Positions 12,765 through 63,998 of a stretch of 64,000 nucleotides of DNA are shown piece by piece. Origin of the DNA: an uncultured cyanobacterium (GTDB lineage: Bacteria; Cyanobacteriota; Cyanobacteriia; Cyanobacteriales; CAWUOF01); assembly GCA_963744145.1 (NCBI GenBank), contig CAVUSO010000001.1:6144001-6208000 (forward strand), in the 5' to 3' direction. Positions within the stretch are counted from its first letter, which is position 1, and each line of letters begins with the position of its first letter. Made by a program: the position numbers and the translations under genes. The notes beneath the pieces are model-generated. The model saw only the letters and a program-made list of their open reading frames with translations. It was not told where the DNA came from and made no database searches.

Positions 12765-12775
12765 AAAAAAATTAT

Positions 12776-26294: not shown

Positions 26295-26595
26295 GTTAAC
26301 CAAAGTCAGATAAATGTGTGTACTTGAGACCAGCACAATTCCCATATTTATTATTAGTAATAAATACTGGAGAATGAGCTTTTGTCTCATTCAAACTCAA
26401 TTTAGCCGACCTGATTGTACCCTATTTTTTCATTTAAAATATGTGAAACTATTGTCATCTGTTTTTTTTAATAAATCGTTATAAATAATTTTGCTAGATA
26501 GTTCTTCCTTATCAAGAATCATCATATCAAAGAAAATTAGAAAAGTCAAGTAGCGAGGAAAAAATTCTGCCGATCGGATCTATCCAAAAAACAAT

Positions 26596-29624: not shown

Positions 29625-29702
29625 AGTTAGATATTATTCTGAGCAGAAACTAACTTTTCTATCCTGATCATACCATAAATAGTCAAAAGTTTATAATTAA
29701 GT

Positions 29703-30530: not shown

Positions 30531-30611
30531 AGTTAGATATTATTCTGAGCAGAAACTAACTTTTTTTCTATCCTGATTATACCATAAATAGTCAAAAGTT
30601 TATAATTAAGT

Positions 30612-31355: not shown

Positions 31356-31433
31356 AGTTAGATATTATTATGAGCAGAAACTAACTTTTCTATCCTGATC
31401 ATACCATAAATAGTCAAAAGTTTATAATTAAGT

Positions 31434-32345: not shown

Positions 32346-32423
32346 AGTTAGATATTATTCTGAGCAGAAACTAACTTTTCTATCCTGATCATACCATAAA
32401 TAGTCAAAAGTTTATAATTAAGT

Positions 32424-33293
32424 TTAAGAAGGATCAGGCTCAATTCCCAGCGATCGCAATTGTGCCGCCAATTTCTCGGCTCGATGGTTCGCTTCTATCT
32501 GGGCTAATTCTGCTAGCTGTGCTTGTTGTTGAGCTTCCCTCTGGGCTAATTCTGCTAGCTGTGCTTGTTGTTGAGCTTCCCTTCGGGCTAATTCTGCTTG
32601 TTGTGCTTGTTGTTGAGCTTCCCTTCGGGCTAATTCTGCTTGTTGTGCTTGTTGTTGAGCTTCCCTTCGTGCTAATTCTTCTAGCTGTAACGCTTCTTCC
32701 TGGGTTTTATATCGATCGCCTTTTTCATCATACCAATATAACCACTCTCTTCTAATTCCTTCATAACTACCAATCTCTACCCCAATTCCTAAGCCAATTT
32801 CTGACATCCAGACCCGATTTCCTGGGATTAATTTATATTCACCTGCGCTCAAATGGTATACCATTAACTGCGGCTGACGACGACGGAATGGTGCATAAAT
32901 CACGTAATACAATACTCCTTGTTTCTCATATTCAATTTTCTTGCGTTTATATTCACCTCCTGGTTTTTTCGATACTACTTCGATCGTCAATTGGGGTACT
33001 ACTCCGTTTTCTTCCCAATTCACATAGCTTAAACGTAGATTTTCCTCCTTAATTCTGGGGACTCCTAAGCTTAAGAACCCATCGGGCGCTAAACAGGGTT
33101 TTTTTGGATCAAAATGCCAAGCCATATCAATTCCAAAAAACCAATCTTGCCGATCGCGCCAAATATAACTTAGTATAGATTTTAACAGATGACAAACTAA
33201 ATCTTGTAATTCACTATCCACGGGTTGATCGTCAGAATATGGTAATTCTGCTGCGGTTGGGAGCTTTTTTTCTAGCTGGTTGTAAGTTAGCAT
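32424..33293 (-). CDS. Uma2-family endonuclease, 289 aa (4 extra units)
   Basis: Same core (one G>E change) plus four repeat units. Confidence 0.9.
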   Translation of the reverse strand: MLTYNQLEKKLPTAAELPYSDDQPVDSELQDLVCHLLKSILSYIWRDRQDWFFGIDMAWHFDPKKPCLAPDGFLSLGVPRIKEENLRLSYVNWEENGVVPQLTIEVVSKKPGGEYKRKKIEYEKQGVLYYVIYAPFRRRQPQLMVYHLSAGEYKLIPGNRVWMSEIGLGIGVEIGSYEGIRREWLYWYDEKGDRYKTQEEALQLEELARREAQQQAQQAELARREAQQQAQQAELARREAQQQAQLAELAQREAQQQAQLAELAQIEANHRAEKLAAQLRSLGIEPDPS

Positions 33294-33371
33294 AGTTAGA
33301 TATTATTCTGAGCAGAAACTAACTTTTCTATCCTGATCATACCATAAATAGTCAAAAGTTTATAATTAAGT

Positions 33372-34157
33372 TTAAGAAGGATCAGGCTCAATTCCCAGCG
33401 ATCGCAATTGTGCCGCCAATTTCTCGGCTCGATGGTTCGCTTCTATCTGGGCTAATTCTGCTTGTTGTACTTTTTGTTGAGCTTCCATCCGGGCTAATTC
33501 CGCTAGCTCGGCTCGATGGTTCGCTTCCATCCGTGCTAATTCTTCTAGCTGTAAAGCTTCTTCCTGGGTTTTATATCGATCGCCCTTTTCATCATACCAA
33601 TATAACCACTCTCTCCTGATTCCTTCATAACTACCAATCTCTACCCCAATTCCTAAGCCAATTTCTGACATCCAGACCCGGTTTCCTGGGATTAATTTAT
33701 ATTCACCTGCGCTCAAATGGTACACCATTAACTGTGGCTGACGACGACGGAATGGTGCATAAATCACGTAATACAATACTCCTTGTTTTTCATACTCAAT
33801 TTTCTTGCGTTTATATTCACCCCCTGGTTTTTTCGATACTACTTCGATCGTCAATTGGGGTACTACTCCGTTTTCTTCCCAATTCACATAGCTTAAACGC
33901 AGATTTTCTCCCTTAATTCTGGGAACTCCTAAACTTAAGAACCCATCGGGTGCTAAACAGGGTTTTTTTGGATCAAAATGCCAAGCCATATCAATTCCAA
34001 AAAACCAATCTTGCCGATCGCGCCAAATATAACTTAGTATAGATTTTAACAGATGACAAACTAAATCTTGTAATTCACTATCCACGGGTTGATCGTCAGA
34101 ATATGGTAATTCTGCTGCGGTTGGGAGCTTTTTTTCTGGATGTTTGTAAGTTAGCAT
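33372..34157 (-). CDS. Uma2-family endonuclease, 261 aa (2 extra units)
   Basis: Same core with a distinct N-terminus (KHP) and upstream region; first copy in transcription order. Confidence 0.9.
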   Translation of the reverse strand: MLTYKHPEKKLPTAAELPYSDDQPVDSELQDLVCHLLKSILSYIWRDRQDWFFGIDMAWHFDPKKPCLAPDGFLSLGVPRIKGENLRLSYVNWEENGVVPQLTIEVVSKKPGGEYKRKKIEYEKQGVLYYVIYAPFRRRQPQLMVYHLSAGEYKLIPGNRVWMSEIGLGIGVEIGSYEGIRREWLYWYDEKGDRYKTQEEALQLEELARMEANHRAELAELARMEAQQKVQQAELAQIEANHRAEKLAAQLRSLGIEPDPS

Positions 34158-42329: not shown

Positions 42330-42575
42330 TTAACCAACTGCAAACTCAGTAAATTTCCGTCCATCGGGAGCTTGAAACGCCAGAACTATATCTTGCTTAG
42401 GAACTTCAGCTTCTACTAATTCATTCTTCACCCCGATTTCTGTACCATCCCGTTCAATCCAAATTTTGCCATCTTTGATTTCCACATAAATAATACAACC
42501 AAATACTCGCGTTAGCTCTTGCCAAGCAATATTAAGAACTTGATAGCGATCGCGTTCCTGATCAACTATCAATAG
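42330..42575 (-). pseudogene. XisI-family gene lacking its N-terminus
   Basis: DRYQVL…IKDGKIWIERDGTEIG…VPKQDIVLAF…TEFAVG. Confidence 0.8.
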
Positions 42576-42719
42576 GCGAAAGTTTACGCCGCGTGGGTGA
42601 ATCTGGTGTAGTGCTTTGGATAGAGTCGAGAAAGCTACTGACGAGAGCAAGTCTGTCAGGAGAGAGTCGATCGAGTTGGCTATTAATTTTTTGGCGAAGT
42701 TGAGACTGGTTCATTTTTA
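42575..42719 (-). pseudogene. Duplicated 5' half of the 40177-40434 antitoxin gene
   Basis: Near-identical to 40295-40439; joined out of frame to the xisI remnant. Confidence 0.85.
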
Positions 42720-42797
42720 AGCAACAGCCATAATTTCAGGATTATTTTCTAACCAAATCTCCCAAAATCTTCAAAGCTCCTTCATCTTTTTTCGGAG
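42714..42797 (-). pseudogene. Degenerate copy of the RAYT 3' end
   Basis: Aligns to about 44685-44770 (FWExWLExNPEIMAVA*). Confidence 0.75.
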
Positions 42798-42853
42798 GGC
42801 GATCGCCCTTACTTTTGCTAAAATAAAAACAGCGATCGCACTTCTTACCCAAC

Positions 42854-43357
42854 TTATGAAGTGATTAATTCTCCTACTAATTGTCGGAATTCTCCTGTTT
42901 GAGGATTCAATTTAAAACTGTCACCATCCATTAATCTTATCGTTAAATTATCCTCATTTATGATAATTTGTTCTGGCAAATCGGGGAAGCCATGATTAAA
43001 TCGTAAAGAACCATTGAGGTTAAATAATAATATTTCGTGTTCCGTCAAAACTGCCGTCACTTCTTGAACGATTTTAATCTGAATTAGGTTAGCTGTTAAA
43101 GGCATGGCAACACAAATGTGACCGCTTGACAGACAAAGGGCTGCTAATTGTCGATCGATACCTATCCAAAGCAGTTTTTTATCGGTTGAATATTCAATAG
43201 TTAAATCGACTAATTCACTACACCAGCTAAGTCCATAACATCCTAAAGTTTCTCCCAAGTCTAAGCAAGCAAATTTTCGGGCATATTCGTGAACAATAAT
43301 TTGCCGAATGGCTGGAATTTGGTTGAATTCTAATTGGCTGATGGAGTGTATTTGCAT
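42854..43357 (-). CDS. Hypothetical protein
   Basis: 167-aa ORF from the ATG at 43357 (MQIHSISQ…LWIGID…FPDLPE); no family recognised. Confidence 0.6.
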   Translation of the reverse strand: MQIHSISQLEFNQIPAIRQIIVHEYARKFACLDLGETLGCYGLSWCSELVDLTIEYSTDKKLLWIGIDRQLAALCLSSGHICVAMPLTANLIQIKIVQEVTAVLTEHEILLFNLNGSLRFNHGFPDLPEQIIINEDNLTIRLMDGDSFKLNPQTGEFRQLVGELITS

Positions 43358-43944
43358 AACTGTGATGGATCGTCTTGCATTAGTGGGGGTGGAGGTGACA
43401 CGACCGAAAAAGAAGTCGAATTTGCTAGATTTAATGGTAAATCCTATGCCTTGAATCAGTTCATCCATTTTGAAAAAGGGTTGTCACCTCTCAAAGAAGT
43501 CGAATTTGCTAGATTAATTGATGCCTAAAGCTGCGGCTAGGCTGTTGACAATTGTACCCTAACAGATGCGAGGTAATGCTGATTGTCCCGTAGGTGCTCC
43601 AGTTCTCCGTCGCATATTTGCCGATCGCAGTTAATTATTAGAGTAGTCGATTAGCGATCGCTCCACCCGATTTGGGTGTGGTGGTTTTTTTGGGGAGCGA
43701 TCGCCAAAATGTCTTTCACTACTTCCAGAACCATGTCTTATAAATGCGATCGCCCCAAATCCCCCCAATCACAAGACCATTCAACTAGAAGCGATCGCAC
43801 TACTCCCAGCACCAGGTCTTTTGAATGCGATCGCTCCAAATTCCCCCAGCACAAGGCCATTAAACTAGAAGCGATCGCTCTGGGCGACCTCATCAAACCA
43901 GTAGCGACCCACCGATCTGTCCCAGTATCAATTAAGCAAATAGC

Positions 43945-44075
43945 AAATATAAAGTTAACGTGAAGTGTAATTTACAGAGTTTTATATAGTATAGGGATTT
44001 TATCTTCGAGGAAATATAAAGTTTCTGTATCTTTAGAAAAACCTGTTGACAGGAATTTAATTATTTTTGTATTCT
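43945..44075 (+). promoter_or_regulatory. Promoter of precursor 1 (duplicated at 52431-52563)
   Basis: Two AAATATAAAGTT direct repeats; TTGACA (44046), 18-bp spacer, TATTCT (44070). Confidence 0.65.
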
Positions 44076-44111
44076 TTTTTTATATGACCCCTATATTAAA
44101 GGTATTCAACA

Positions 44112-44276
44112 ATGTCAATTATCAAAAACACCAAGAAGCGCGTCGTCAAAGAAGAGAATAAAAGTCTGAGTCTCATGCTGTCGGAGTCCGATTCGGAGTC
44201 CGATTTGCTGTTGCTGTCGGAGTCCGATTTGCGGGCCGTGGTCGGCGGGAAGCAATTCAATGCCCAACGGGTATAG
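44112..44276 (+). CDS. Double-glycine leader peptide precursor 1 (54 aa; predicted core KQFNAQRV)
   Basis: Hand translation MSIIKNTKKRVVKEENKSLSLMLSESDSESDLLLLSESDLRAVVGG|KQFNAQRV; not in the ORF track. Confidence 0.8.
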   Translation: MSIIKNTKKRVVKEENKSLSLMLSESDSESDLLLLSESDLRAVVGGKQFNAQRV

Positions 44277-44687
44277 TGGTAGGCATTAACAAGCAGAACC
44301 CCAAAAAAAATCAAACCAACCCATATTTAATATTCACTTCAAAAAAAGCAACAGAAGAAAGCTTCTTAAAATCCTAACCCATTAGATGAGTAGCGATCGC
44401 GCCAGATTGCGCGAGAAATAGATTAGGTACGCAAATCCTTTGTTTTAGGATTTCATTACCTGCCAAGGGGGGTATTCCCACGGGAGAACCGGGCCAAAGA
44501 TGCCTGTTTCTCCCTAGATTTTTTTAACAAATCAACAAAAATGTCATCTAAAATACAGAAATTCGGCAAAAAATCGTTCCAAGAGACAAGAATCCCTAGA
44601 AAAACGCAAAAATCGCTAAAAATAGGAATAATGATTTAAAAAAACCATCATAAATTTAGGACTAAAACAATTAGCCAAAATAAATTT

Positions 44688-45446
44688 TTAAGCAACAGCC
44701 ATAATTTCGGGATTAGTTTCTAACCAAAGTTCCCAAAATCTTTGTGCTTCATCATCTTTTTTCTTCGGTGTTTTTTTGAGAGAGTTTTGGTTTTCTTTTC
44801 CGGGTTTCCTTTCCCGACTTTTTGAAGGAGTTTTAGTTAATTTTGGCAATAAACTATTTCCCCAAAAAAACCTTTTTGGAGATTTGGATTTCGGTTGATA
44901 TTGATGACAAAAACCCTGATATTTCCTCGCACAATCATCCAAAGTTTCACCCAAAGTCAAAAAAGCCGGATGCCAAGTGGTTAACCCATCATCCCCTAAT
45001 CTTTCATAAACACCATAATTAGAAAAATCATAGAAAAAATCCTGTTGCATTCCCGCAGCTTTGGGATTAGCGTGGATGTACCTCAAAGTATTTAAAGCGC
45101 GTTTTCGATCAGCATTAGAAAAACTGGTAGCATTATATCTTTTTTCCCAGAAGCTTGTGGTGAGCGAAGTCGAACCATGCCCAGTCCGGTTAAGCATTCG
45201 GTTAAAACACATAGCAGAATACCAATTAATTAAGTGCATAATTTTCGGTAAATCTTCAGCTTTTTGTGGTTCAATTAAATAATGAATGTGATTAGACATA
45301 ATACATAAACCATAAAGTTTGAAATCATATTTCTCTATGGTTTTTTTGAGAATATAAAGAAAGACTTGGCGACATTCTAGACGCATTAAGCGAAATTCAC
45401 GATTATTGCATCGAGTAGTAATATGATAAGAAAAGTGATGAGACAT
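44688..45446 (-). mobile_element. REP-associated-type HUH (Y1) tyrosine transposase (RAYT-like)
   Basis: YHITTRCNNR, HUH motif MSNHIH, GH…FWEKRY and catalytic RYIHANP; contains an 8-aa insertion. Confidence 0.85.
45153..45176 (-). repeat. 24-nt small dispersed repeat inserted in frame in the RAYT gene
   Basis: GGTTCGACTTCGCTCACCACAAGC (GSTSLTTS) interrupts the conserved GH-FW motif. Confidence 0.75.
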
Positions 45447-45603
45447 AAATAATGGTCTTTCTCGCTGGTTGCTTATGTGGAAAAGCTTTATCGTTAAGTA
45501 TACCGTTTATGGTAGACAGCGAGCGATCGCCGACTTCGTGGGAGTTGGAGATTGTCATCAATAAATATGGACCTTGGCAGGCTTTTTATTCCTTAGAATT
45601 ATT

Positions 45604-47232
45604 ATGGTAAACGCTCAAGATAACAAAAACAAAGAGAGGATTTTCCGGGCTGAATCTTTAGAACGCTTATCCTCACCAGAACGTCTTGACCAACTGATGC
45701 AGGTACTAGCACCCTTAGATTGGCTGATCTTGGTAGTTTTTAGTGGTTTGGGAATTTTAGGTGTCGGTTGGAGTATTCTTGGTCGCATTCCAATTACGGT
45801 CGAAGGTAAGGGGATATTTATGCAACCTCGACAAGTTGTTGAGCTTCAGTCGGCGATTAGTGGACAGTTAAAGTCTTTAAATGTCAGTAATGGTAAGTGT
45901 TTTAAAAAAGATGAAGTATTGGCTACTGTCGAGCCGCTCGAACTCCAAAATCAGTTAAAATTGTCGCAAGAAAAACTAGCTCAGTTACAGAAACAAGATT
46001 TAGAAGCAACGCTAATATTAAGCCAAAGGATGACCTTAGAAAAAACTACGATCGCGGCTAGTCAAATTAGCTTACAAAAACGGTTACAAGATGCTCAAAA
46101 TTTAACCCCGATTCTCAAGGAAAAAAGTACCGATGCGATCGGGAAACAAAAATTAAGTTTACAGCAACGATTACAGGATACAAAAGCCTTTACTCCAGCA
46201 CTGAAAGAAAAGGGATTAACAGCGATCGCTCAACAGCGAATTAGTCTGCAACAAAGATTAAAAGATGCGGAAAAGATTGCCGTTGTGCTGCAACAAAAAT
46301 TTCAGCGACATAGCGAACTTGCTAAAAGTGGAGGTATATCAATAGACTCAGTATTACAGGTAGAACAAGAATATCAAGAAGGAGTTCAGAAAATAGCCGA
46401 TCTCCAAGCTCAATTAAAACAACTGGATCTCACGGAAACTCAAACTGAGCAAACCTACCAAGATAGTGTTAATAAAATTGGCGAAATGCAAGCCCAGTTA
46501 CAAGATTTGGAAGTGCAAAGTGTAAAAACTGAGCGGGAATATTTAGATAATCTGCGCTCAATTAGTGATACTGAATCTCAGTTGCAAGAACTAGATACTA
46601 AAAATAAACGACTAGATCAAGAAACTCTAGAAACGTCAACTCAACGGAAAAAAGAACTCCAAGAAGTTCAGCGAGAAATTAGTAAGATTCAGGAACAAAT
46701 AACTAACAACAGTAGGATTTTAAGCTCTCAAGATGGCTGTATTTTAGAATTAACTGCTACTTTGGGGCAAGTGGTGCAACCTAGCAGTAAATTGGGTAGT
46801 ATCCGGGTAGGAAATGAGGAAAATCTCGGGCAAGCAATGGCTTATTTTCAGATTAAAGATGGTAAGCAAATCAAACCGAAGATGTTGATTCATGTAACAC
46901 CAGATACCTTACAAAGAGAGCGTTTTGGTGGTATTGTGGGTGAAGTGACTGCGGTTTCTGCTCTCCCCGTAACTCCCGAAGGAACCGTAGCTATGATCGG
47001 CAATTCCCAAATTGTCAAAAATCTAATTGGGGAGGGAGGAACAGCGATCGAAATTACTGCCAAATTGACGACAGACCCCCACAATCCTAGCGGTTATAAG
47101 TGGTCTTCCTCTCAAGGTCCAGACTCGCCGATTACATCAGGAACTACAGCAACAGTAAGGGTCACAATTGAAGAAAGAGCGCCAATTACTTTTGTTTTAC
47201 CTTTCTTACGGGAATTAGTTGGTACTAAATAA
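45604..47232 (+). CDS. NHLM bacteriocin system secretion protein (HlyD family)
   Basis: IFRAESLERLSSPERLDQLMQV, long coiled coil, SGYKWSSSQGP and ERAPITFVLP; ATG at 45604 preferred. Confidence 0.92.
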   Translation: MVNAQDNKNKERIFRAESLERLSSPERLDQLMQVLAPLDWLILVVFSGLGILGVGWSILGRIPITVEGKGIFMQPRQVVELQSAISGQLKSLNVSNGKCFKKDEVLATVEPLELQNQLKLSQEKLAQLQKQDLEATLILSQRMTLEKTTIAASQISLQKRLQDAQNLTPILKEKSTDAIGKQKLSLQQRLQDTKAFTPALKEKGLTAIAQQRISLQQRLKDAEKIAVVLQQKFQRHSELAKSGGISIDSVLQVEQEYQEGVQKIADLQAQLKQLDLTETQTEQTYQDSVNKIGEMQAQLQDLEVQSVKTEREYLDNLRSISDTESQLQELDTKNKRLDQETLETSTQRKKELQEVQREISKIQEQITNNSRILSSQDGCILELTATLGQVVQPSSKLGSIRVGNEENLGQAMAYFQIKDGKQIKPKMLIHVTPDTLQRERFGGIVGEVTAVSALPVTPEGTVAMIGNSQIVKNLIGEGGTAIEITAKLTTDPHNPSGYKWSSSQGPDSPITSGTTATVRVTIEERAPITFVLPFLRELVGTK

Positions 47233-47240
47233 CTAAAAAA

Positions 47241-49472
47241 ATGCGATCGATGATGCAATGGTTCAAAAACTTCATCAACTCCAGAGAAAAACCTGAATAC
47301 GCCAACATTCGCGTTAAAACTCCTACTCTATTGCAGATGGAAGCAACTGAATGTGGTGCGGTGGCTTTAGGAATTATATTGAGCTATTACCGACGAATTG
47401 TTTCCTTACCAGAACTGCGAATTGGTTGCGGTGTTTCCCGTGATGGTGCTAACGCTTGGAACCTACTCAAAGCTGCTAAAAGCTATGGGATGATTGCCGA
47501 TGGGTTTAAGAGCGAAATCGATACCCTGCAAAAGATTGAGCCGCCTTATATTGTGTTTTGGAACTTCAATCATTTTCTAGTTGTAGAAGGTTTTGTGGGG
47601 CATCGGGTCTATCTCAATGACCCAGCAACTGGCCCCCGGCGCGTGACCATCCAGGAGTTTGATGAAGGTTTTACAGGTGTGGTTTTGATCATGGAACCCG
47701 GACCTGACTTTGCCGAATGTGGACAAAATCCCAGTATAATTGGTGCTTTATATTCACGTCTGAAAAATTCTTGGTCGGAACTATTATTTTGTATTATTAT
47801 CGGTTTTTTATTGGTAATCCCTAGTTTAGCACTGGCTGCAATGAGCCAGGTATTTGTTGATAATGTGCTGATTCAAAAGCACTACGAATGGCTAAAACCT
47901 CTTTTGCTAGGAATGGGTGGACTCTTATTTTTGCAAGCATTAATGACTTTGCTACGATTGCGAAAACTGAGATATTTGAATTTGCGCTTATCGATCAGCA
48001 TGACAGGGCAGTTTTTGTGGCATATATTGCATTTACCTGTAGAGTTCTACGCCCAACGTTTTGCAGGTGAAATTAGTAACCGAATTGGAATTAATAGTAA
48101 AGTAGCAGGGGTACTGTCGGGACAGTTGGCAAGAACTGTGATTGACGGGGTGATGATCTTTTTCTACGGCGCTGCGATGTTTGCTTATGATTGGGTGCTG
48201 ACCCTAATGGGAATAGTTGGGGTGGCGGTGGATATTATTTTTGTCCGGTTGATGTCTCGCCACTGGACTGATTTGAGTATGAGAATATCCCAGGATGGTG
48301 GGAAGTTAGCCGGGGTTGAAATTGCAGCTTTGCAAAGTATCGAAACAATTAAAGCAGGAGCTTTGGAGTCAGATTATTTTGCTCGTTGGGCCGGATATTA
48401 TGCGAAGCTAACCACAGCCCAACAGGAAATGAGCCAAAATCAACAATGGGTATCTCTGTTACCGTCTCTGGTGTCTTCTTTGATTTCAATGTCGGTGTTG
48501 GTGATGGGAGGGATACGGGTGATTGATGGACACCTGACCATTGGGATGTTAATTGCTTTTCAGGGGTTGATGGGGCGGTTTCAAGATCCTGTAAATACTT
48601 TAGTGAGCTTGGGAACGACAATTCAGACGTTGGATGGGGATATGAAACGCTTAGATGATGTATTGCGCCATCCCCTAGACCCTAGCTCTAATCAAGCCAC
48701 TCCTACTTGGTCTGCTGATCGCTATCGCTTGCAAGGATATGTAGAACTTCGTAATATTACTTTTGGCTATAGTCATGTGAATCCGCCACTAATTGAAAAT
48801 TTCAGTTGTAGACTGGAACCAGGGCAACGGGTGGCTTTTGTCGGTAGTAGTGGTTCGGGCAAATCTACACTATCGAAACTGATTACAGGATTGTATACAT
48901 CTTGGGAGGGGGAGATTTTATTTGATGGTTTATCCCGACAGAAAATTCCTCGTTCGGTAATGGCAAATTCTCTGGCACTGGTGGAACAGGAAATTTTTCT
49001 GTTTGAGGGAACAATTAGGGAAAATTTGACTCTTTGGGATGAAACAATTCCTGATCAGCAGTTAATTAGAGCTTGTCAAGATGCAGAAATTTTAGATGTA
49101 GTTATGGCAATTCCTGGTGGATTGGATGGAAAATTACTCGAAGCTGGAGCCAATTTGAGTGGAGGACAGCGCCAAAGGTTAGAAATTGCTCGCGCTTTAG
49201 TTCATAATCCGGCAATTTTGGTAATGGATGAGGCTACTTCGGCTTTGGATGCTCAAACAGAAAAGCGGATTGATCGAAATTTACGACGACGGGGTTGTAC
49301 TTGCATTATTGTTGCCCATCGTCTGAGTACAATTCGCGATTGTGATGAAATTATTGTGTTGGAACGAGGTAAAGTGGTGCAACGCGGCACCCATGAGTCA
49401 ATGAAGAGAGAAGATGGTGTTTATGCGCGATTAATTGGGATGGGTTTGCATAGCGATATGGAACTAAACTGA
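47241..49472 (+). CDS. NHLM ABC transporter with C39 peptidase domain
   Basis: LQMEATECGA (Cys), WNFNHF (His), NDPA (Asp); GSSGSGKS and LSGGQRQR. Confidence 0.95.
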   Translation: MRSMMQWFKNFINSREKPEYANIRVKTPTLLQMEATECGAVALGIILSYYRRIVSLPELRIGCGVSRDGANAWNLLKAAKSYGMIADGFKSEIDTLQKIEPPYIVFWNFNHFLVVEGFVGHRVYLNDPATGPRRVTIQEFDEGFTGVVLIMEPGPDFAECGQNPSIIGALYSRLKNSWSELLFCIIIGFLLVIPSLALAAMSQVFVDNVLIQKHYEWLKPLLLGMGGLLFLQALMTLLRLRKLRYLNLRLSISMTGQFLWHILHLPVEFYAQRFAGEISNRIGINSKVAGVLSGQLARTVIDGVMIFFYGAAMFAYDWVLTLMGIVGVAVDIIFVRLMSRHWTDLSMRISQDGGKLAGVEIAALQSIETIKAGALESDYFARWAGYYAKLTTAQQEMSQNQQWVSLLPSLVSSLISMSVLVMGGIRVIDGHLTIGMLIAFQGLMGRFQDPVNTLVSLGTTIQTLDGDMKRLDDVLRHPLDPSSNQATPTWSADRYRLQGYVELRNITFGYSHVNPPLIENFSCRLEPGQRVAFVGSSGSGKSTLSKLITGLYTSWEGEILFDGLSRQKIPRSVMANSLALVEQEIFLFEGTIRENLTLWDETIPDQQLIRACQDAEILDVVMAIPGGLDGKLLEAGANLSGGQRQRLEIARALVHNPAILVMDEATSALDAQTEKRIDRNLRRRGCTCIIVAHRLSTIRDCDEIIVLERGKVVQRGTHESMKREDGVYARLIGMGLHSDMELN

Positions 49473-49477
49473 ATTAG

Positions 49478-52198
49478 ATGTCAAACGGTCGAAATTTTAA
49501 TGGGTCTGAATTGGTAATAAATAGCAATAGCCCTTTCCCTCTCAACATACAGGATCGGGTTTTTTGCGTAAAATCTGGATTGATCGCAGTATTTGCGATC
49601 GCTACTACCAACAACATACCGCAAGGAGCAAGGCGCTATCTATTCGATGTGAGTCCAGGGGAGATTTTATTGGGAATAGCACCAATTTGGGAGGGCCGCT
49701 CCTACCAATTGATCGCTATAGCTTATGAAGAAACGCAATTAGTTTCGATTTCGCTGATCGATTGGATTAAGCAGACACCAGTAAGACCACATTTACAACA
49801 ATGGAGCGATCGCCTAGTGGGGGTTTTCCGAGAGGCATCTATTGATTTTAATGGTATTAAATCAGCACAGCTAGATGATCTGGAATCTCAGGGGGATACT
49901 GCTGAGGAGACATGGCATAAACTCCTAGACAACCTTCACTCTAACTTTTTATTTAGCTTAAACCAACTCGAACTAGAGGAAGCATCAATACAAGCCGAAC
50001 TATTTCGATCGCGTCTAAAACTCAAGGATACTGCAAAGGAAAAAGCATTAGGGAATCTTACTGCTGTTTTTCGATCCAAAAAAATCAAATCACCCCAAGC
50101 AGAAGAAACGACATTGTTAATGGCAGCGGGGGCTGTAGGACGGGCGATGGGGATAGAGATTCGTCCACCTGCAAAATCAGAAAATCTTCAGCGAGTTAGT
50201 GATCCACTATTGGCGATCGCCCGTGCTTCACGAATTCGCACCCGTCAGATCATTTTAAGCGGAAATTGGTGGCAGTTCGATTGTGGTCCAATCTTGGCTT
50301 ATTATCAAAGATCAGAAAATGAAAATGAAACTCCTGTTGCACTCCTACCAGCAGGTAGAAACCATTATGAAATTTTCGATCCTGAAACTCAGCGTCGTAT
50401 TCCCCTAAATCAGAAAACAGCTAAACATATCTCAATTGTAGCCTTTGTTTTCTATCGTTCTTTTCCTGAAAAAGTTCTGAAAGCAATTGATATCCTCAAA
50501 TTTGCCACCCAAGGTACTCTTCAAGAAGCAGCAATAATTTTGGGTTTGGGAGCTGTGGTTTCCTTGTTGGGAATGCTGACACCCCAAGTAACAGGTATTT
50601 TAATCGATCATGCTATTCCTAGTGGCGATCGCGGTTTAATTTGGCAATTAGCACTGGGTTTATTAGCAGTTAGTTTTGGCACTATATTGTTAGATTTAGT
50701 CGAGGGCGTCGCGACGATTCGTTTACAAACATTAGCCGAAATTCAGACAGAAGCTGCTACTTGGGATCGACTCCTGAAATTACCTCCCAATTTCTTTCGT
50801 CAGTTTTCCCTCGGCGATCTGCAAATGCGGCTTTCTGGAATTACCTATCTCCACCAAATCCTTAGCAGCACTTTAATAGGAACTATTTTTCACAGTTTTT
50901 TTGCACTGTTAAATTTAGGGTTGCTGCTTTTTTATAATTTTCAATTAGCTTTAGTAGCGATCGCGATCGCCCTGCTGAATACATTAGTAACAATAGCTTC
51001 CTATTTTATCTCCCGTCAAAGTATAGCTGAAAACAAACAATTAAGCGGAGAAATCTTTGGACTGATGGTGCAATTAATCGCCGGGATATCAAAACTACGG
51101 GTAGCGGATGCAGAGGAGAGGGCTTTTGCCCATTGGTCGAAAAAATTTGGTCAGCAACAAGAAATGATGGTAAACATGGCTGCTGTCCAAGATTGGGTGA
51201 CGCTATTTAATACGATTTTGCCAACGATTAGCTCGATTTTAGTTTACGGGTTGGGCGTAGTGCTGATTACCGAAGCCCAGACTCACGGACAGACCGGGTT
51301 TTCAACAGGAACATTTTTGGCATTTAATGCAGCATTCGGCACTTTTGTAGGTGGTGTAACTGGTTTGAGTAATGCCTTTGTGAATACAATGCAAGTCTCA
51401 ATTATCTGGAAGCGGATTCAGCCGATTTTGGTGGAAAAAACGGAGGTTGATCAGAATAAAAATGATCCGGGAAGACTAACAGGTGAGGTTAAGATTGATC
51501 ATGTTAGTTTCCGCTATGGGAAAGATAGCCCATTAATCTTAAATCAGGTGACAATAGAGGCTAAACCGGGTGAATTTATCGCTTTAGTTGGTCCTTCCGG
51601 TAGTGGTAAGTCAACCATTGTCAGATTACTATTAGGGTTCGAGCAACCTGAACAGGGAAAGGTTTATTATGATCGTCAGGACTTGACTAACTTAGATATT
51701 TTAGCAGTACGACGACAGTTGGGAGTGATGTTACAGGATGGCAAGATTAATAGCGCTTCGATTTTTGAGAATATTTCTGGTGGTGCTTTAGTAACAATGG
51801 ATGAGGCTTGGGAAGCCGCCAGAATGGCTGGTTTTGCCTCGGATATTCAGGAATTCCCGATGGGGATGTATACAGTAATTTCGGAAGGGGGGACGAATAT
51901 TTCAGGGGGACAGCGCCAACGGTTATTAATAGCGCGATCGCTTGTGTTAAAGCCAAAGATTTTGATTTTTGACGAAGCGACGAGTGCTTTAGATAATCAA
52001 ACACAGACGATTATCAGTGAAAGTTTGAATAGTTTGCAAGTAACTCGGATTATTATTGCTCACCGTTTGAGTACAATTCGTTATGCTGATCGAATTTATG
52101 TAATTGTCGCAGGGAAAGTTGTACAGCAGGGCAATTTTGAGGAATTGATGGCACAATCAGGAATGTTTGCTGATTTAATGGCGCGACAATTGGTTTAG
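49478..52198 (+). CDS. NHLM ABC transporter permease/ATP-binding subunit (no peptidase domain)
   Basis: WWQFDCGP, AEERAFAHW, GPSGSGKS, ISGGQRQR and DEATSALD motifs. Confidence 0.93.
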   Translation: MSNGRNFNGSELVINSNSPFPLNIQDRVFCVKSGLIAVFAIATTNNIPQGARRYLFDVSPGEILLGIAPIWEGRSYQLIAIAYEETQLVSISLIDWIKQTPVRPHLQQWSDRLVGVFREASIDFNGIKSAQLDDLESQGDTAEETWHKLLDNLHSNFLFSLNQLELEEASIQAELFRSRLKLKDTAKEKALGNLTAVFRSKKIKSPQAEETTLLMAAGAVGRAMGIEIRPPAKSENLQRVSDPLLAIARASRIRTRQIILSGNWWQFDCGPILAYYQRSENENETPVALLPAGRNHYEIFDPETQRRIPLNQKTAKHISIVAFVFYRSFPEKVLKAIDILKFATQGTLQEAAIILGLGAVVSLLGMLTPQVTGILIDHAIPSGDRGLIWQLALGLLAVSFGTILLDLVEGVATIRLQTLAEIQTEAATWDRLLKLPPNFFRQFSLGDLQMRLSGITYLHQILSSTLIGTIFHSFFALLNLGLLLFYNFQLALVAIAIALLNTLVTIASYFISRQSIAENKQLSGEIFGLMVQLIAGISKLRVADAEERAFAHWSKKFGQQQEMMVNMAAVQDWVTLFNTILPTISSILVYGLGVVLITEAQTHGQTGFSTGTFLAFNAAFGTFVGGVTGLSNAFVNTMQVSIIWKRIQPILVEKTEVDQNKNDPGRLTGEVKIDHVSFRYGKDSPLILNQVTIEAKPGEFIALVGPSGSGKSTIVRLLLGFEQPEQGKVYYDRQDLTNLDILAVRRQLGVMLQDGKINSASIFENISGGALVTMDEAWEAARMAGFASDIQEFPMGMYTVISEGGTNISGGQRQRLLIARSLVLKPKILIFDEATSALDNQTQTIISESLNSLQVTRIIIAHRLSTIRYADRIYVIVAGKVVQQGNFEELMAQSGMFADLMARQLV

Positions 52199-52382
52199 TT
52201 TTCAAAATCTCAGCTTTGGAAATATATATCTGAGTTAGCGATCGCTCTCACCCCCACAATTTGTCTCAGTAGCGACCTATCTATCTGCTCCAGTATCGAT
52301 TTAGTAGCAACCGAAACAGAATTTATTAGTTTCTTTTATTACTTGTAAGCTATTAATTGATTTATCGCTAATAGAATAATAT

Positions 52383-52398
52383 TGTGATTCATATCACG
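52383..52398. promoter_or_regulatory. Candidate CRP-family binding site
   Basis: TGTGA-TTCATA-TCACG; one mismatch to TGTGA-N6-TCACA. Confidence 0.45.
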
Positions 52399-52430
52399 GT
52401 TATAATCAATACGCATCACAATACTAATAT

Positions 52431-52563
52431 AAATATAAAGTTAATGTGAAGTATGATTTATAGAGTTTTAAGGGATTATCGGGATTTTATCTTCGAGGAA
52501 ATATAAAGTTTCTGTGAGTTTAAGGAAAGTGTATTGACTATTGATTAATTATTTTTGTATCTT
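52431..52563 (+). promoter_or_regulatory. Promoter of precursor 2 (paralog of 43945-44075)
   Basis: Two AAATATAAAGTT repeats; 35-bp block 52481-52515 identical to 43994-44028; TTGACT, 18-bp spacer, TATCTT. Confidence 0.65.
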
Positions 52564-52595
52564 TTTGATTATCAAAAGAAAAAGAGTATTCAACA

Positions 52596-52721
52596 ATGTT
52601 AATTACCAACAAAACCAAGAAGCGCGTCGTCAAGGAAGAGAATAAGGGGATTAGTCAGTTGTCGGAGTCCGATTTGCGGGGCGTCGTGGGGGGTCAGTAC
52701 AAGAACTGGAAAACTACATAG
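52596..52721 (+). CDS. Double-glycine leader peptide precursor 2 (41 aa; predicted core QYKNWKTT)
   Basis: Hand translation MLITNKTKKRVVKEENKGISQLSESDLRGVVGG|QYKNWKTT. Confidence 0.82.
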   Translation: MLITNKTKKRVVKEENKGISQLSESDLRGVVGGQYKNWKTT

Positions 52722-52828
52722 AAATTGATTCGGTACACAAATTCAATGGTTAGGAATTTCACAAGCTTTTCTAATTACCGATAATTGCAACGCAAACCAA
52801 TTGTTAATAATCAAAGGAGAATAATACT

Positions 52829-52987
52829 ATGGCTAATAACCAAAAAGGGAAGAAAATTATACAAGACAAGTCAGCATCAGCATCCAGTTTGCTTCCTGAT
52901 GGTATTCAATTTTTGTCGGAGTCTGCTCTTGTGGGTGTTGTGGGGGGAGGTCCTAACTTGCAAAGAGGCAAGATTATCGAATTATAA
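52829..52987 (+). CDS. Double-glycine leader peptide precursor 3 (52 aa; predicted core GPNLQRGKIIEL)
   Basis: AAGGAG RBS; MANNQKGKKIIQDKSASASSLLPDGIQFLSESALVGVVGG|GPNLQRGKIIEL. Confidence 0.8.
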   Translation: MANNQKGKKIIQDKSASASSLLPDGIQFLSESALVGVVGGGPNLQRGKIIEL

Positions 52988-53103
52988 TAGCATCAGCAGC
53001 GGATGAAAATTGATAAACAGGGACTCCTATTTCCTCAAAAACTTACTCTTAAACTAGAAGCGATCGCCCTCAACTACACAATCAAACCAAAAATGATCGC
53101 TCT

Positions 53104-53143
53104 CAGTAGCAGCAGAGTCTAATTTTCTGAGAACTGCGATCGC
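53104..53143 (+). repeat. 40-bp HIP1-terminated repeat (further copies at 53762-53801 and 56673-56712)
   Basis: CAGTA-n4-CAGAG-n2-TAATTT(T/C)CTGAGAA-n-TGCGATCGC present in three copies. Confidence 0.8.
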
Positions 53144-53171
53144 AAGTATATCTAGTATTATTTTCTCGCGA

Positions 53172-53675
53172 AGTAATGCAAATCTTATTTCAGCTAATCT
53201 AACATTAGCGAACTTAACAGCAGCAAACTTAGCTCAAGCCAATCTAAGCTCTGCTAATTTCTCAATGGCAAATTTAACGGGTGCTAATTTAAGTGAAACT
53301 AATATAACTTCAGCAAATTTAACAGGAGCAGATTTGACTAAAGCTAATTTACAAAATGCTCAATTGAATCAAGTAGTATTTAATAATAATAAATTAATAG
53401 AAGTCTGTTTACTAGGAGCAAAAATTGTCAATACTAAGTTAAAGGGATTAGACTTAACCAAAGCGAATTTATGTGGTACTAATCTAAGTAATTTAGATAT
53501 GACTGAGGCAAATTTAACTTCTGCTAATTTAGTCGGAGCAAATCTACAAGGTGCCAATCTAGAAAGGGCTAACTTAAAAGAAGCAAACTTAACTGGTGCT
53601 AATCTGAAAAATGCCAAATTAAATGGTGCTATTCTAACTGGTGCAATTATGCCCGATGGGTCAATTCATGAATAG
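53172..53675 (+). pseudogene. Pentapeptide repeat protein, probably 5'-truncated
   Basis: A(N/D)Lxx repeats continue in frame about 30 codons upstream of the ATG at 53265 with no start codon; ends GAIMPDGSIHE. Confidence 0.7.
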
Positions 53676-53809
53676 TGTTTATTGGCGATCGCTCTTAATC
53701 CCGCAACTGTGACTTATTGGTAGCGATCGCACTAAACCAGTCCCTAATCTGACAGTAGCCCCAGTAACAGCAGAGCTTAATTTTCTGAGAATTGCGATCG
53801 CCCCAATCC

Positions 53810-55281
53810 CAATACGGTTCGGTTAAGCTTTAAGCAGTATTGAGGATAGAAAAATTGAGGGTTTCATGTTTAACTCCCTGACCTCTATGAATTGGTTTCT
53901 TGGATGGAAATTTGGCGCGAGTTTTTTTAATAACACGAGGGTTACTTCTACCTTCACGTTTGGGAATTGGTTCATCCAAAATTTCCCTGATCAACCAACT
54001 AAAAAAAAGGGGAAATTCTTCTGGTTGAAGGCGCTGAAATTTGGGAATAGCACGACGGACAACATTGAGAGTACCAGTAAAACTCAATCGTAAAGGGGAG
54101 ATGTGAGCAGAGGTGGCCGCGGTCAACATGAGAGAACGAACCGCCCAATGTCCGAGGAGCCAACCATAAATTTCCTGAACCACTTCACGGGGATGAAGAG
54201 AACGAATCAGAGTTTTACGTCCCAATTGATGAACCTTCAATTCATCGATAGTATTTTCAACTTCCCAACGACGATGATATTCTGTGGCTAATAATAAAGC
54301 TGGAAATAAAGCGATGTCCGTCAAACTGGTAATCAGACGGTAAGTTTGTGCTTCGCCATTATCAATAGTGTATTCAATGACTCGAACCATAATTTTGGTC
54401 ATGCCCTGTTTTTTCGACTTGCCGTCGGGAGCAATCCAGGAGAGATAGGAACCATCATCCAATACCTGCTCCACAGGAAATTTAACATTTTTGGGGATGC
54501 GTCCCAAATAATCACATTTTTGGGACAAGGTGGCTTGCACCATTGCATAAGAATGCAATCCACGATCCCACATTAATAACATTCCAGTGGTGACTGACCG
54601 TAGTAACCTTTTCACTCTGACTCGCTCACCGATTCGGTAAGGGCAGATCAAGGCATCTACAATTAAATGTGTTCCTGCTTCAATCAATAGAACCAAACGC
54701 ACCTTGGGAAACGCGGCTCTAGTTCCAGGACGACTAGCTGGATATCCAAATACTCTGGCATTTGTGTCGCTATCTGGCACATCAAACACTGTTCCATCTA
54801 CAGCCATAATTCGCTTTTCACCTAAAAAAGCCCCTGGGGTTTCCCTAGTAGCCTGTGGTCTAACTACTATGTGAAACAGATGCCGCATTACCCCTGCACC
54901 TACTCGCTGTCTAGCTTCTGTAATTGATGATTTACATGGTATTCGCCAATAATAACTAACTCTGACCCATGCTTCATTTAAGCCATCAACCAGATTTTTC
55001 AACACTGTCCTCATTGACCCCCTAGACCATAGACTCATCCCAATGATTAGACAGATAACCAGATGCGTTGGTAATGCTCTTTGTCGTTCCTCTTTTCTAT
55101 TGGTATCTTCAATGGCTTTTTCAATTGCTGTCGATGGAATCGCTGTTTCTAACGCTTTGAGGATCATCCCTGATTCGACCACAGGTGATATTACAGTGAA
55201 TTCTTTGAGCTGCATTCCTACTCATTCCATTTAGGTGACACTTTCATTTTACCTGATTTTTAGCTTAACCGAACCGTATTG
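53810..55281 (-). mobile_element. Complete IS4-family insertion sequence (1472 bp)
   Basis: Perfect 20-bp TIR CAATACGGTTCGGTTAAGCT; 10-bp target duplication GCCCCAATCC at 53800-53809 and 55282-55291. Confidence 0.95.
53830..55215 (-). CDS. IS4-family DDE transposase
   Basis: AVDGT, WDRG and the IS4 signature YHRRWEVENTIDELK. Confidence 0.95.
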   Translation of the reverse strand: MQLKEFTVISPVVESGMILKALETAIPSTAIEKAIEDTNRKEERQRALPTHLVICLIIGMSLWSRGSMRTVLKNLVDGLNEAWVRVSYYWRIPCKSSITEARQRVGAGVMRHLFHIVVRPQATRETPGAFLGEKRIMAVDGTVFDVPDSDTNARVFGYPASRPGTRAAFPKVRLVLLIEAGTHLIVDALICPYRIGERVRVKRLLRSVTTGMLLMWDRGLHSYAMVQATLSQKCDYLGRIPKNVKFPVEQVLDDGSYLSWIAPDGKSKKQGMTKIMVRVIEYTIDNGEAQTYRLITSLTDIALFPALLLATEYHRRWEVENTIDELKVHQLGRKTLIRSLHPREVVQEIYGWLLGHWAVRSLMLTAATSAHISPLRLSFTGTLNVVRRAIPKFQRLQPEEFPLFFSWLIREILDEPIPKREGRSNPRVIKKTRAKFPSKKPIHRGQGVKHETLNFSILNTA

Positions 55282-62639: not shown

Positions 62640-63998
62640 TTAATGACCTCCAACTACCACATTTTTAATTCGGACATGGGGACCACCGACACTAACCGGA
62701 AGGGGCATCTGTCCACCTTTACCACAGCCACCATTGGTATAAATAGAATCGTTGCCGATCGCCTCAATATCCTTAAGTGTCTGAAAAACATTACCAGTAA
62801 GAGTAACATCACTGACGGGTTCGGCTAGTTGACCATTCCGAATCATATAGCCGACTGCTGCGGCAAAAGTAAACATCTCACCATTAGTTTGTCCACCGAG
62901 CATCCGCACGGCATAGACACCTTCTTCAATATCACTAATCATGTCCTGAAAAGAGCGATCACCGGCAGTAATCGCTGTATTTGTCATGCGTACAATTGGC
63001 GGATAGGTAGCACTTAAAGCACGAGCATTACCTGTCGGGGCTTCGTGCATTTTGCCAGCAGTTTCCCGATTATGCAAACGACCAGTTAAAATCCCATCCT
63101 TAATCAAATATTTGCGTTGGGCTGGTACACCTTCATCATCATAGGTCAAAGTACCTGGTAAACCAGGAATAGTGGCATCATCAATCACATTCAACTGTGC
63201 GATCGCCATAGGTTTACCGAGTTGCAATAATTCCTGCATCCGGGGATTTTCATAGACAAAATCAGCCTCCGATAGATGTCCAAAAGCTTCATGAATAAAG
63301 ACCCCAGCCAAATAAGGGTCTAAAATTACGGTATATTGTCCACCTTTAACTGATTTGGCCTCCAACTGCCCCACCGCTCGTTCGGCAGCACTGATCACTT
63401 GGGATTCGAGGTTAGTGAAAACATTAAAATCAGAACGAGAGTGGCAAGATTCATAACCTTGTCGGACTAAACCACCTTCTCCACGGGCGATCGCGCCAAA
63501 ACCAGCCGAAATATCTAAGCGTTCTTGGGCGATATTACTACCGAGGGAATTAACTAAATAGGTGACCCCAAACCGATCGCGCATACTGGTCATCGTCGTC
63601 TGAATCCGGGGATCAAATTTCAGCAACAACTGATTATAATGGTCTAATAAGTTGCGTTTTTCAGCCAGAGAAATTCCTCGGGGATCACGTTTTAATTCTA
63701 CCGCAACATAATCTTGGACTGGTGTGCTTTGGGCTAGCTCAGTTTTTTCTTTCCCGACTAACTTAGCTTGGGAGATAGCTTCTGCCATGCGATTCGTTAA
63801 TTCGTCTAATCCATTAAAAGTGACAAAACTCCAACCACCCTGGTGACAAGCGCGAATACCTCCAGCCAGAGCAAAATTTCGATCTACAGCATCAAGGCGA
63901 TCGCCTCGATAAGAAATAGAAGTTGACTCACTTTGTTCCAAACGTATTTCTAGATAATCCACCAGATTCCGTACTGGCGCGATCGCTGCTTGTAGTTG
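62640..63998 (-). CDS. tldD: TldD/PmbA family metalloprotease (5' end outside window)
   Basis: HEAFGHLSEAD, YDDEG, TGNAR, RMTN and GCGKGGQ motifs; frame stays open to the window edge. Confidence 0.88.
   Translation of the reverse strand, partial: QLQAAIAPVRNLVDYLEIRLEQSESTSISYRGDRLDAVDRNFALAGGIRACHQGGWSFVTFNGLDELTNRMAEAISQAKLVGKEKTELAQSTPVQDYVAVELKRDPRGISLAEKRNLLDHYNQLLLKFDPRIQTTMTSMRDRFGVTYLVNSLGSNIAQERLDISAGFGAIARGEGGLVRQGYESCHSRSDFNVFTNLESQVISAAERAVGQLEAKSVKGGQYTVILDPYLAGVFIHEAFGHLSEADFVYENPRMQELLQLGKPMAIAQLNVIDDATIPGLPGTLTYDDEGVPAQRKYLIKDGILTGRLHNRETAGKMHEAPTGNARALSATYPPIVRMTNTAITAGDRSFQDMISDIEEGVYAVRMLGGQTNGEMFTFAAAVGYMIRNGQLAEPVSDVTLTGNVFQTLKDIEAIGNDSIYTNGGCGKGGQMPLPVSVGGPHVRIKNVVVGGH

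Follow-up and report, generated by a model that had tools for sequence, protein, structure and literature searches.

The stretch analysed here, 64,000 nt from the genome of an uncultured filamentous cyanobacterium, is referred to as the window; coordinates are window positions, and C1 and C4 denote contigs of the 7.7-Mb source genome (G000). It contains a compact export system bracketed by three very small open reading frames (ORFs), ORF1 to ORF3, each encoding a predicted precursor in which a leader ending in a double-glycine (GG) motif is followed by a short C-terminal segment, the core. The original prediction had placed three such ORFs around an HlyD-type adaptor, an ATP-binding cassette (ABC) protein with an intact C39 peptidase and a second ABC subunit. 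All three ORFs were recovered on the + strand with the positions and sequences given there, and the exporter genes between them were borne out by NCBIfam, Pfam and an alignment to the peptidase LahT150. A fourth paralog, ORF4, is an orphan elsewhere in the source genome. The genes are as follows.

44112-44276, + strand: ORF1, predicted GG-leader precursor of 54 aa; leader 46 aa, core KQFNAQRV.
45574-47232, + strand: HlyD-type periplasmic adaptor (TIGR03794, 321.6 bits; cut-off 156.2).
47241-49472, + strand: C39-peptidase ABC protein, the cleaving subunit (TIGR03796, 1090.1 bits; cut-off 853.3; Peptidase_C39, 7e-32).
49478-52198, + strand: second ABC permease/ATPase, peptidase-less (TIGR03797, 936.4 bits; cut-off 709.4).
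52596-52721, + strand: ORF2, predicted GG-leader precursor of 41 aa; leader 33 aa, core QYKNWKTT.
52829-52987, + strand: ORF3, predicted GG-leader precursor of 52 aa; leader 40 aa, core GPNLQRGKIIEL.
G000:C1:4972559-4972738 (L001:8560-8739): ORF4, orphan fourth paralog, core RPDGAAAGPAPAGPAQAS.

The adaptor and both ABC proteins score above their NCBIfam equivalog cut-offs, which identifies a three-gene exporter of the NHLP type, and the genes share one orientation with gaps of 5-8 nt, forming a tight operon. The true start of HlyD is probably the ATG at 45604 (MVNAQDNK...). In the first ABC protein, the C39 residues Gln32, Cys38, His111 and Asp127 are intact when aligned to LahT150 and PCAT1. 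LahT150 (PDB 6mpz) is the closest solved C39 relative (E=4e-43); Gln32, Cys38 and His111 align on its Gln21, Cys27 and His101, and Asp127 on the conserved Asp-Pro. Gln21 and His101 of LahT150 are named in the accessible text of PMC6363468. The catalytic residues are confined to this one subunit, since the second ABC protein has no Peptidase_C39 match and its N-terminal 221 aa match 0 Pfam families at E<=1, leaving the first ~210 residues without a family. Genes of the TolC type lie elsewhere in the genome (C1:4204292-4205483 and C1:7122522-7123835), as do three further C39-ABC paralogs of the same type.

ORF1, ORF2 and ORF3 each start at the first ATG, 4-9 codons past an in-frame stop, and their leaders end in a common LSESxLxxVVGG that recurs in ORF4. 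Numbered back from the Gly-Gly, all four paralogs read L-12 S-11 E-10 S-9 D/E/A-8 L-7 x-6 G/A-5 V-4 V-3 G-2 G-1, and so carry the features of C39 double-glycine leaders: hydrophobic residues at -12, -7 and -4, an acidic residue near -8, and Gly-Gly at -2/-1. The GG-leader consensus cited in the available portion of Wang et al. 2011 is M(R/K)ELX3E(I/L)X2(I/V)XG(G/A) (PMC3140520). A DNA pattern for LSESxLxxVVGG has 4 matches in the source genome, three of them less than 9 kb from the exporter. The remaining 400 genomes sampled from the order have 0, and a reversed control pattern likewise has 0. The motif is not a chance occurrence. The strongest evidence that it is read as protein, and that the ORFs are probably translated, comes at the codon level, where the paralogs, four in number, differ only synonymously at 8 of the 12 positions of the motif (-12, -11, -9, -7, -4, -3, -2, -1). 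These protected positions include the hydrophobic -12, -7 and -4 and the Gly-Gly that define C39 leaders, while non-synonymous changes are limited to -8, -6 and -5, the variable positions of the GG-leader consensus. Pairwise codon differences over the last 12 leader codons amount to 31 synonymous and 14 non-synonymous. Within the ORF1 leader, a 12-nt tandem repeat, TCGGAGTCCGAT, is present in 2.1 copies (44181-44205).

It is very improbable, on these data, that ORF1-3 are chance frames or an untranslated repeat maintained at the DNA level. They are indeed very short, ORF1 and ORF2 lie within duplicated DNA, and ORF2 has no called gene in the protein collection, where ORF1 (P0002) and ORF3 (P0001) exist as predicted proteins. 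Against this, the synonymous-only positions hold in ORF3 and ORF4 as well, whose DNA has otherwise diverged, the motif is absent from the 400 other genomes, and the genes adjoin the one machine that reads such a motif. The counterparts in Oscillatoria described below are moreover equipped with promoter region, ribosome-binding site and terminator. We regard ORF1-3 as very probably real substrates of the adjacent exporter.

Each of the three genes is preceded by predicted expression signals; the promoter-like and ribosome-binding sites are matches to consensus sequences.

43945-44111, + strand: conserved upstream region of ORF1, with two AAATATAAAGTT boxes, a promoter-like site and a short 5' untranslated region.
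43945-43956 and 44012-44023: the AAATATAAAGTT boxes upstream of ORF1.
44046-44075: promoter-like site of ORF1 (TTGACA, 18 nt, TATTCT).
52431-52595, + strand: conserved upstream region of ORF2, with two AAATATAAAGTT boxes and a promoter-like site.
52431-52442 and 52499-52510: the AAATATAAAGTT boxes upstream of ORF2.
52534-52563: promoter-like site of ORF2.
52758-52987, + strand: ORF3 unit, which carries a separate promoter-like site (52758-52785) and, as ribosome-binding site, GGAG.

ORF1 and ORF2 form a pair of paralogous cassettes, 78% identical over 251 nt that span upstream DNA and the first part of the leader. They have ~170 nt of upstream DNA in common, with the promoter-like site at the same aligned position, and their similarity ends at the Gly-Gly codons. 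The AAATATAAAGTT boxes are paired at both genes with a spacing of 67-68 nt; the genome holds 14 copies of the box (~6 expected), paired only at these two promoters, and a wider AAATATAAAGTT regulon was rejected because none is evident from the genome-wide copies. The distal upstream DNA of ORF2 (52237-52425) resembles the DNA upstream of ORF4, the identity being 74-86%. ORF4 itself sits among housekeeping genes (gyrA, a GUN4-like gene, DUF3685), with a YcaO gene and an NHLP-like ORF ~16-18 kb away. An Rfam scan of 42500-54000 gave no match at E<=0.1. Upstream of ORF1, 43707-43924 consists of intergenic repeats with an internal duplicated unit of ~80 nt, copies of which, 86-90% identical, occur at C1:6185829, C1:3090860 and C1:4848129; a 95-aa ORF running across them (43676-43963) has no Pfam match and is probably spurious.

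Independent data come from orthologous loci. HlyD orthologs 73-74% identical to that of the window are found in Oscillatoria sp. PCC 10802, a metagenome-assembled genome (MAG) of O. princeps and two other MAG contigs, and at the three of these loci for which flanking sequence is at hand the C39-ABC gene is followed by a single small GG gene. Of the 11 genomes of one family that contains Oscillatoria, 4 match a hidden Markov model (HMM) of the Oscillatoria leader, with one GG gene each, and a profile search added a fifth allele of this type. Almost the same leader (MKARNSKIEQKNL.AKEAQVEELSEEQLAAVSGG) occurs in all five, whereas the cores (AAPGHL, RDRAIKK, SVRIRS, ASGKGSEARVRRLR and GGRR) are mutually unrelated, Cys-free and 4-14 residues long. 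Pairwise, the leader DNA is 89-97% identical and the next 30 nt after the Gly-Gly codons 23-43%. Averaged over pairs of four Oscillatoria loci, DNA identity runs as follows.

Upstream, from 400 to 201 nt: 54%.
Upstream, from 200 to 1 nt: 60%.
Within the leader: 93%.
The 30 nt past Gly-Gly: 36%.

Each gene is self-contained: promoter region and ribosome-binding site precede it, and behind it identity rises again over a conserved hairpin terminator. The Oscillatoria genes resemble those of the window in their orthologous exporter, in a short leader that is first basic and then acidic and ends in LSExxLxxVxGG, and in their short, variable, Cys-free cores. They differ in being single copies placed between the C39-ABC gene and an inverted second ABC gene, and in belonging to another leader family, which the HMM of the window leaders scores at only E=0.2-0.74. 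The pattern of a conserved leader with a hypervariable short core is supported by these sequences. The original prediction, which had read the window genes as a conserved leader with hypervariable cores of 8-12 aa, gains support from the Oscillatoria pattern; core lengths in the source genome fit a random tail.

This last point bears on the main rival explanation, in which selection does not act on the tails and only the leader is functional, translation simply reading through to the first chance stop. The genes would then be former bacteriocin genes that have lost their cores, or would encode peptides reduced to the leader, which occupy the exporter or regulate it, with promoter and leader (plus the terminator in Oscillatoria) as the conserved unit. 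We consider this possible, though doubtful. Several observations fit it or weigh against functional cores. In the source genome, core lengths of 8, 8, 12 and 18, with 9 for a peptide of a LanM cluster discussed below, agree with the geometric model of a random read-through tail (p=0.35), and this model is rejected only weakly for the five Oscillatoria cores, whose lengths fall modestly below random (p=0.04), and for all ten cores together (p=0.05). The cores have no similarity to one another, among paralogs or orthologs. One allele, GGRR, extends four residues past the Gly-Gly and is scarcely credible as a specific product. L025 (Oscillatoria sp. PCC 10802) and L026 align over 19.4 kb at 93.8% identity, and the core window (16 of 30 positions identical) belongs to a set of five 30-nt windows of similar divergence in this alignment; the mean core identity of 36% does lie below the 54-60% of neighbouring intergenic DNA, but over only 30 nt. 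No intrinsic terminator follows ORF1-3, where downstream folds are no better than shuffles, and ORF1-3 reach no curated GG-leader model. Finally, the cluster has no linked sensor kinase, regulator or other candidate receptor and no recognised immunity gene, though one may be present, since immunity genes have no signature; the nearest kinase or regulator genes, at 10917-13402 (kinase 10917-12764) and 20993-24598, are more than 19 kb off.

Other features of the same genes speak against unselected tails. The ten cores comprise 92 residues, of which 22 are Lys or Arg, 4 Asp or Glu, and 0 Cys; the share of Lys/Arg exceeds the ~12-13% expected of random codons (p~0.003), and the cores trend shorter than random. 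In all ten genes, spread over six genomes or contigs, the frame is unbroken and the cut site canonical. The Oscillatoria leaders are conserved far above their intergenic flanks (93% vs 54-60%), and three or four genes with their own promoters would be costly if they had no product. The data favour, without proving, the cores as selected products.

As a plausible mechanism, each peptide would be made with a leader of 33-46 residues ending in the double-glycine motif. The C39 domain of the first ABC protein (Cys38, His111, Asp127) would bind the leader and cut after Gly-Gly, and the C-terminal piece would leave the cell by way of both ABC subunits, HlyD and a TolC-type channel encoded elsewhere. 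Processing of short cores is to be expected, because LahT150 tolerates highly divergent sequence past the cut site, as reported in the accessible part of PMC6363468. The products would be linear, probably unmodified and mostly cationic peptides of 8, 8 and 12 residues, with calculated [M+H]+ values of 990.548, 1068.547 and 1337.790 for the unmodified cores of ORF1, ORF2 and ORF3. Cleavage, export, non-modification and any extracellular role are what we infer from the genes. We put the probability of the whole chain, up to exported short cores as functional products, at roughly 0.5; that the core is the functional part appears evenly balanced, and that its function is signalling is a tentative suggestion.

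The precursors fall outside the curated families. ORF1-3 gave no match at E<=10 to the NHLP (TIGR03793) and Nif11 (TIGR03798) models, and ORF1-3 and ORF4 none at E<=10 to TIGR01847 (cut-off 15.7 bits); the CTB model was likewise without a match to ORF1-3. With 33-46 aa, their leaders are also well short of the ~70-90 aa of NHLP and Nif11 precursors. ORF2 matches, weakly, the radical S-adenosylmethionine (radical-SAM)-modified family TIGR04149 (E=0.011, 15.6 bits; cut-off 25 bits), over the generic leader only.

The leader appears to be specific to this lineage: in the collections searched, that of ORF1-4 was not found beyond the source genome, and the search of cyanobacterial genomes that had been proposed at the outset returned no homolog outside it. 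Run against every ORF of 20-200 aa in the six reading frames of the source genome, an HMM of the four leaders retrieved those four only (next E=0.11), a circular result in that the model was built from the same four. Over 60 relatives, its best match had E=0.074. A profile search of 5.8 billion proteins yielded 108 candidates, among which only the three called peptides of the source genome itself stood; a scan of genome contigs gave 30 pattern matches, 0 of them confirmed by tblastn; and metagenome contigs from JGI gave 5, 0 with a leader-like N-terminus, under a 35-nt pattern with rough frame handling. The best match of an HMM combining 7 leaders had E=0.56. Among the flanks of 17 more distant HlyD-homolog loci, convincing GG ORFs were seen only at L064, L069 and L071, with cores of 13-43 aa (a match at L070 looks spurious), in a survey that would miss non-ATG starts and precursors lying farther away. 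The only other genome of the source family (G001) has a locus on a contig that ends at 7.6 kb, where a two-domain protein resembling those that bind cyclic nucleoside monophosphate (cNMP) precedes HlyD and a 392-aa protein (L067:5299-6477) follows the C39-ABC, with no second ABC or GG ORF there.

The original prediction had also seen no maturation enzyme, and this holds: YcaO, LanM/LanC, radical-SAM/SPASM and ATP-grasp families are absent by Pfam from all 55 non-overlapping ORFs of at least 80 aa in the window listing (48 + 7, all scanned). One could then suppose that ORF1-3 are precursors of peptides made on ribosomes and modified after translation (RiPPs), matured in trans by a LanM, YcaO, radical-SAM/SPASM or other enzyme encoded elsewhere. 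The source genome does hold one LanM (L002:7934-11050), two YcaO and four SPASM matches, together with two Nif11-type and two sub-threshold NHLP-like leaders, and trans-acting maturases are established for prochlorosins, as set out in the portion of Wang et al. 2011 at hand (PMC3140520). ORF2 adds its TIGR04149 match and a core with Tyr, Trp, Lys and two Thr. Nonetheless, we regard this explanation as improbable. The ORF1 and ORF3 cores lack Cys, Ser and Thr altogether and the ORF2 core has no Cys, so that lanthionine or azole chemistry is impossible for the former two and trans-maturation would be feasible only through other chemistry, to which nothing points. A RiPP of the lanthipeptide or azole (thiazole/oxazole-modified microcin, TOMM) kind would call for a maturase in the cluster and Cys/Ser/Thr in the core; the former is absent and the latter is limited to the two Thr of ORF2, and 0 of the 4 members of the leader family adjoin a maturase. 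NHLP and Nif11 models do not match the leader, and the LanM cluster has a GG peptide of its own with a different leader. A radical-SAM RiPP reading of ORF2 was likewise set aside, its TIGR04149 match being below cut-off and confined to the leader, with no radical-SAM gene nearby.

The LanM cluster and other exporter clusters of the genome can be described further. The genome's only LanM is preceded by a small GG-leader ORF (L002:7579-7716; G000:C1:5147578-5147715; MSAQKES...ELSMVELDTIAGG), whose leader is unlike those of ORF1-3 and whose 9-residue core, RAAQSAKSL, could form no lanthionine ring because it has two Ser but no Cys. Also encoded there are a two-domain cNMP-binding protein, HlyD, two C39-ABC paralogs and a TPS-domain protein. 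A third exporter cluster includes a leader ORF of the Gly-Ala type (L004:13226-13453, - strand; ...LQGVVGA) with a Cys-rich 21-residue core, next to a MauE-like protein, two unnamed small proteins and exporter genes. The SPASM matches at C4:6783-6977 and C4:15689-15880 parallel those at C1:5044230-5044424 and C1:5035336-5035527 (35.9/35.9 and 26.8/27.6 bits), which suggests that the small contig C4 duplicates that chromosomal region.

That the peptides are classical unmodified bacteriocins of the class II-like kind, killing competitors, also seems quite unlikely. The layout invites the idea: a GG leader with a dedicated C39-ABC and HlyD is the standard arrangement of bacteriocins and microcins in the accessible text of PMC3140520, and the cores are cationic. 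NCBI and JGI label the Oscillatoria counterparts "bacteriocin" or "bacteriocin-like protein" (e.g., WP_017717351.1) through TIGR01847, which 3 of 4 tested Oscillatoria peptides pass with 18.3-19.5 bits. This label, however, rests on the leader alone, the model spanning 15 positions. Linear peptides of 4-12 residues are, in addition, shorter than LahA, EbfG and LanM-type NHLP cores, and no candidate immunity gene conserved between the window and the Oscillatoria loci was found.

A size of 8-12 residues suits diffusible signals better than membrane-active bacteriocins. At such a size, diffusible strain-specific peptides, serving as signals or in kin recognition, are more likely than pore-forming bacteriocins. 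The comparison at hand is with the GG pheromones of streptococci, in which the exporters ComAB and BlpAB free a short unmodified peptide by C39-ABC cleavage after Gly-Gly and alleles vary between strains. Streptococcal pheromone genes adjoin their own sensor kinase and response regulator. ComA structures are among the PDB matches of the C39 domain studied here; in contrast to the ComC/BlpC type, the window cluster has no linked cognate kinase and response regulator, and the outer membrane additionally requires HlyD and TolC. Nor does a kinase flank the Oscillatoria GG genes, where the sole signalling gene within 6 kb encodes a receiver-adenylate cyclase protein. This protein (L025:19284-20858, - strand) has receiver, HAMP, adenylate/guanylate cyclase and TPR domains, adjoins the peptidase-less ABC gene and may be related to the cNMP-binding proteins of other such clusters. 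Under a signal function, the leader would be the export address, the core a fast-evolving identity tag and the paired AAATATAAAGTT boxes an autoinduction site. That the whole exporter lineage, in the source genome and Oscillatoria, releases unmodified strain-specific peptides of 4-14 residues as kin or quorum signals between filaments is a speculative and rather unlikely extension.

Set against known systems, the novelty of the cluster had been overstated. The cluster, with HlyD, a short-type C39-ABC, an extra ABC without C39, small GG precursors nearby and no LanM, matches group V as defined in the available portion of Wang et al. 2011 (PMC3140520). That group comprises 37 precursors of 28-151 aa, of which 16 fall outside NHLP/N11P and 9 were unannotated, so that short unannotated precursors were already listed; the Oscillatoria genes, too, were already named. 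A motif search of the supplements of Wang et al. 2011, whose Table S3 gives coordinates without sequences, found no match. The two-domain cNMP-binding protein of group V is absent from the window, although present in G001 and in the LanM cluster of the source genome. The transport cassette TIGR03794/03796/03797 is the one that Haft, Basu and Mitchell defined in 2010 and linked to NHLP and Nif11 precursors, whose leaders end in the same Gly-Gly motif (PMC2887384, as far as its accessible text goes). The difference lies in the precursors: leaders of ~70-90 aa there vs 33-46 aa in ORF1-3, and LanM-type NHLP cores that average 26 aa and are often Cys-rich vs 8-12 aa and Cys-free here. LahT shares the catalytic residues and has the closest solved C39 domain, but its substrates LahA have Nif11-type leaders and lanthipeptide cores of 2352-2660 Da, and a lanthionine synthetase belongs to the system, according to the same portion of PMC6363468. 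What is notable in a cluster of known type is the lineage-specific leader and the very short, variable, Cys-free cargo shared with Oscillatoria.

In cyanobacteria, products bearing GG motifs need not be antibiotics, as two systems indicate in the parts of the respective papers at hand: EbfG1-4/PteB of Synechococcus elongatus, where EbfG serves the biofilm matrix and has a mature mass of 6-7 kDa (PMC4997328), and HetC of Nostoc, which has an N-terminal cNMP-type domain and a presumed differentiation signal, its substrate being unidentified (PMC10986499). Our literature search found functional work on cyanobacterial C39 exporters only for these two and no report of cyanobacterial GG peptides with cores as short as the present ones.

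The surroundings of the cluster contain the following further genes.

44688-45446, - strand: Y1 transposase (IS200-like, of the type associated with repetitive extragenic palindromes, REP), between ORF1 and HlyD (Pfam Y1_Tnp, 8.3e-19).
53265-53675, + strand: pentapeptide-repeat protein, directly past ORF3.
53830-55215: IS4 transposase, downstream of the cluster.
62640-63962, - strand: PmbA/TldD-family protein, ~9 kb further on.

The Y1 transposase, which the original prediction had missed, scores 57.1 bits against the NCBIfam model REP_Tyr_transpos, under its cut-off of 80; it is a mobile insertion and no part of the export system. With this insertion and the IS4 transposase downstream, the cluster therefore lies in a plastic region. 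The pentapeptide-repeat and PmbA/TldD families are both tied to microcin B17 biology. A microcin B17-like reading was nevertheless rejected, as no YcaO is encoded locally and the cores cannot be heterocyclised; we judge the presence of the two genes that prompted it a coincidence, and neither was seen at the Oscillatoria locus in a partial scan. Elsewhere in the window, 28923-34157 (- strand) holds six tandem paralogs of 233-303 aa, each with a Uma2 (putative restriction endonuclease) domain in the same position, and 24702-26390 (- strand) a 562-aa ORF without a Pfam family at E<=1e-5.

As it stands, the cluster is of an ordinary type with an unusually small cargo. Cyanobacteria have many peptidase-containing ABC exporters, and a substrate function was found in the literature for one, EbfG/PteB. 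If the tails were unselected, the genes would be a warning that "bacteriocin" labels resting on a 15-residue leader say nothing about the product. A conserved leader with a variable core across related species is, on the other hand, the expected look of a strain-specific signal or recognition tag, and unmodified products of 4-14 residues, being synthesisable, are easy to test. Were the signal reading true, these genes would open peptide signalling of filamentous cyanobacteria to experiment, constitute the first described cyanobacterial GG-leader peptide signalling system and provide a candidate substrate class for HetC-like exporters.

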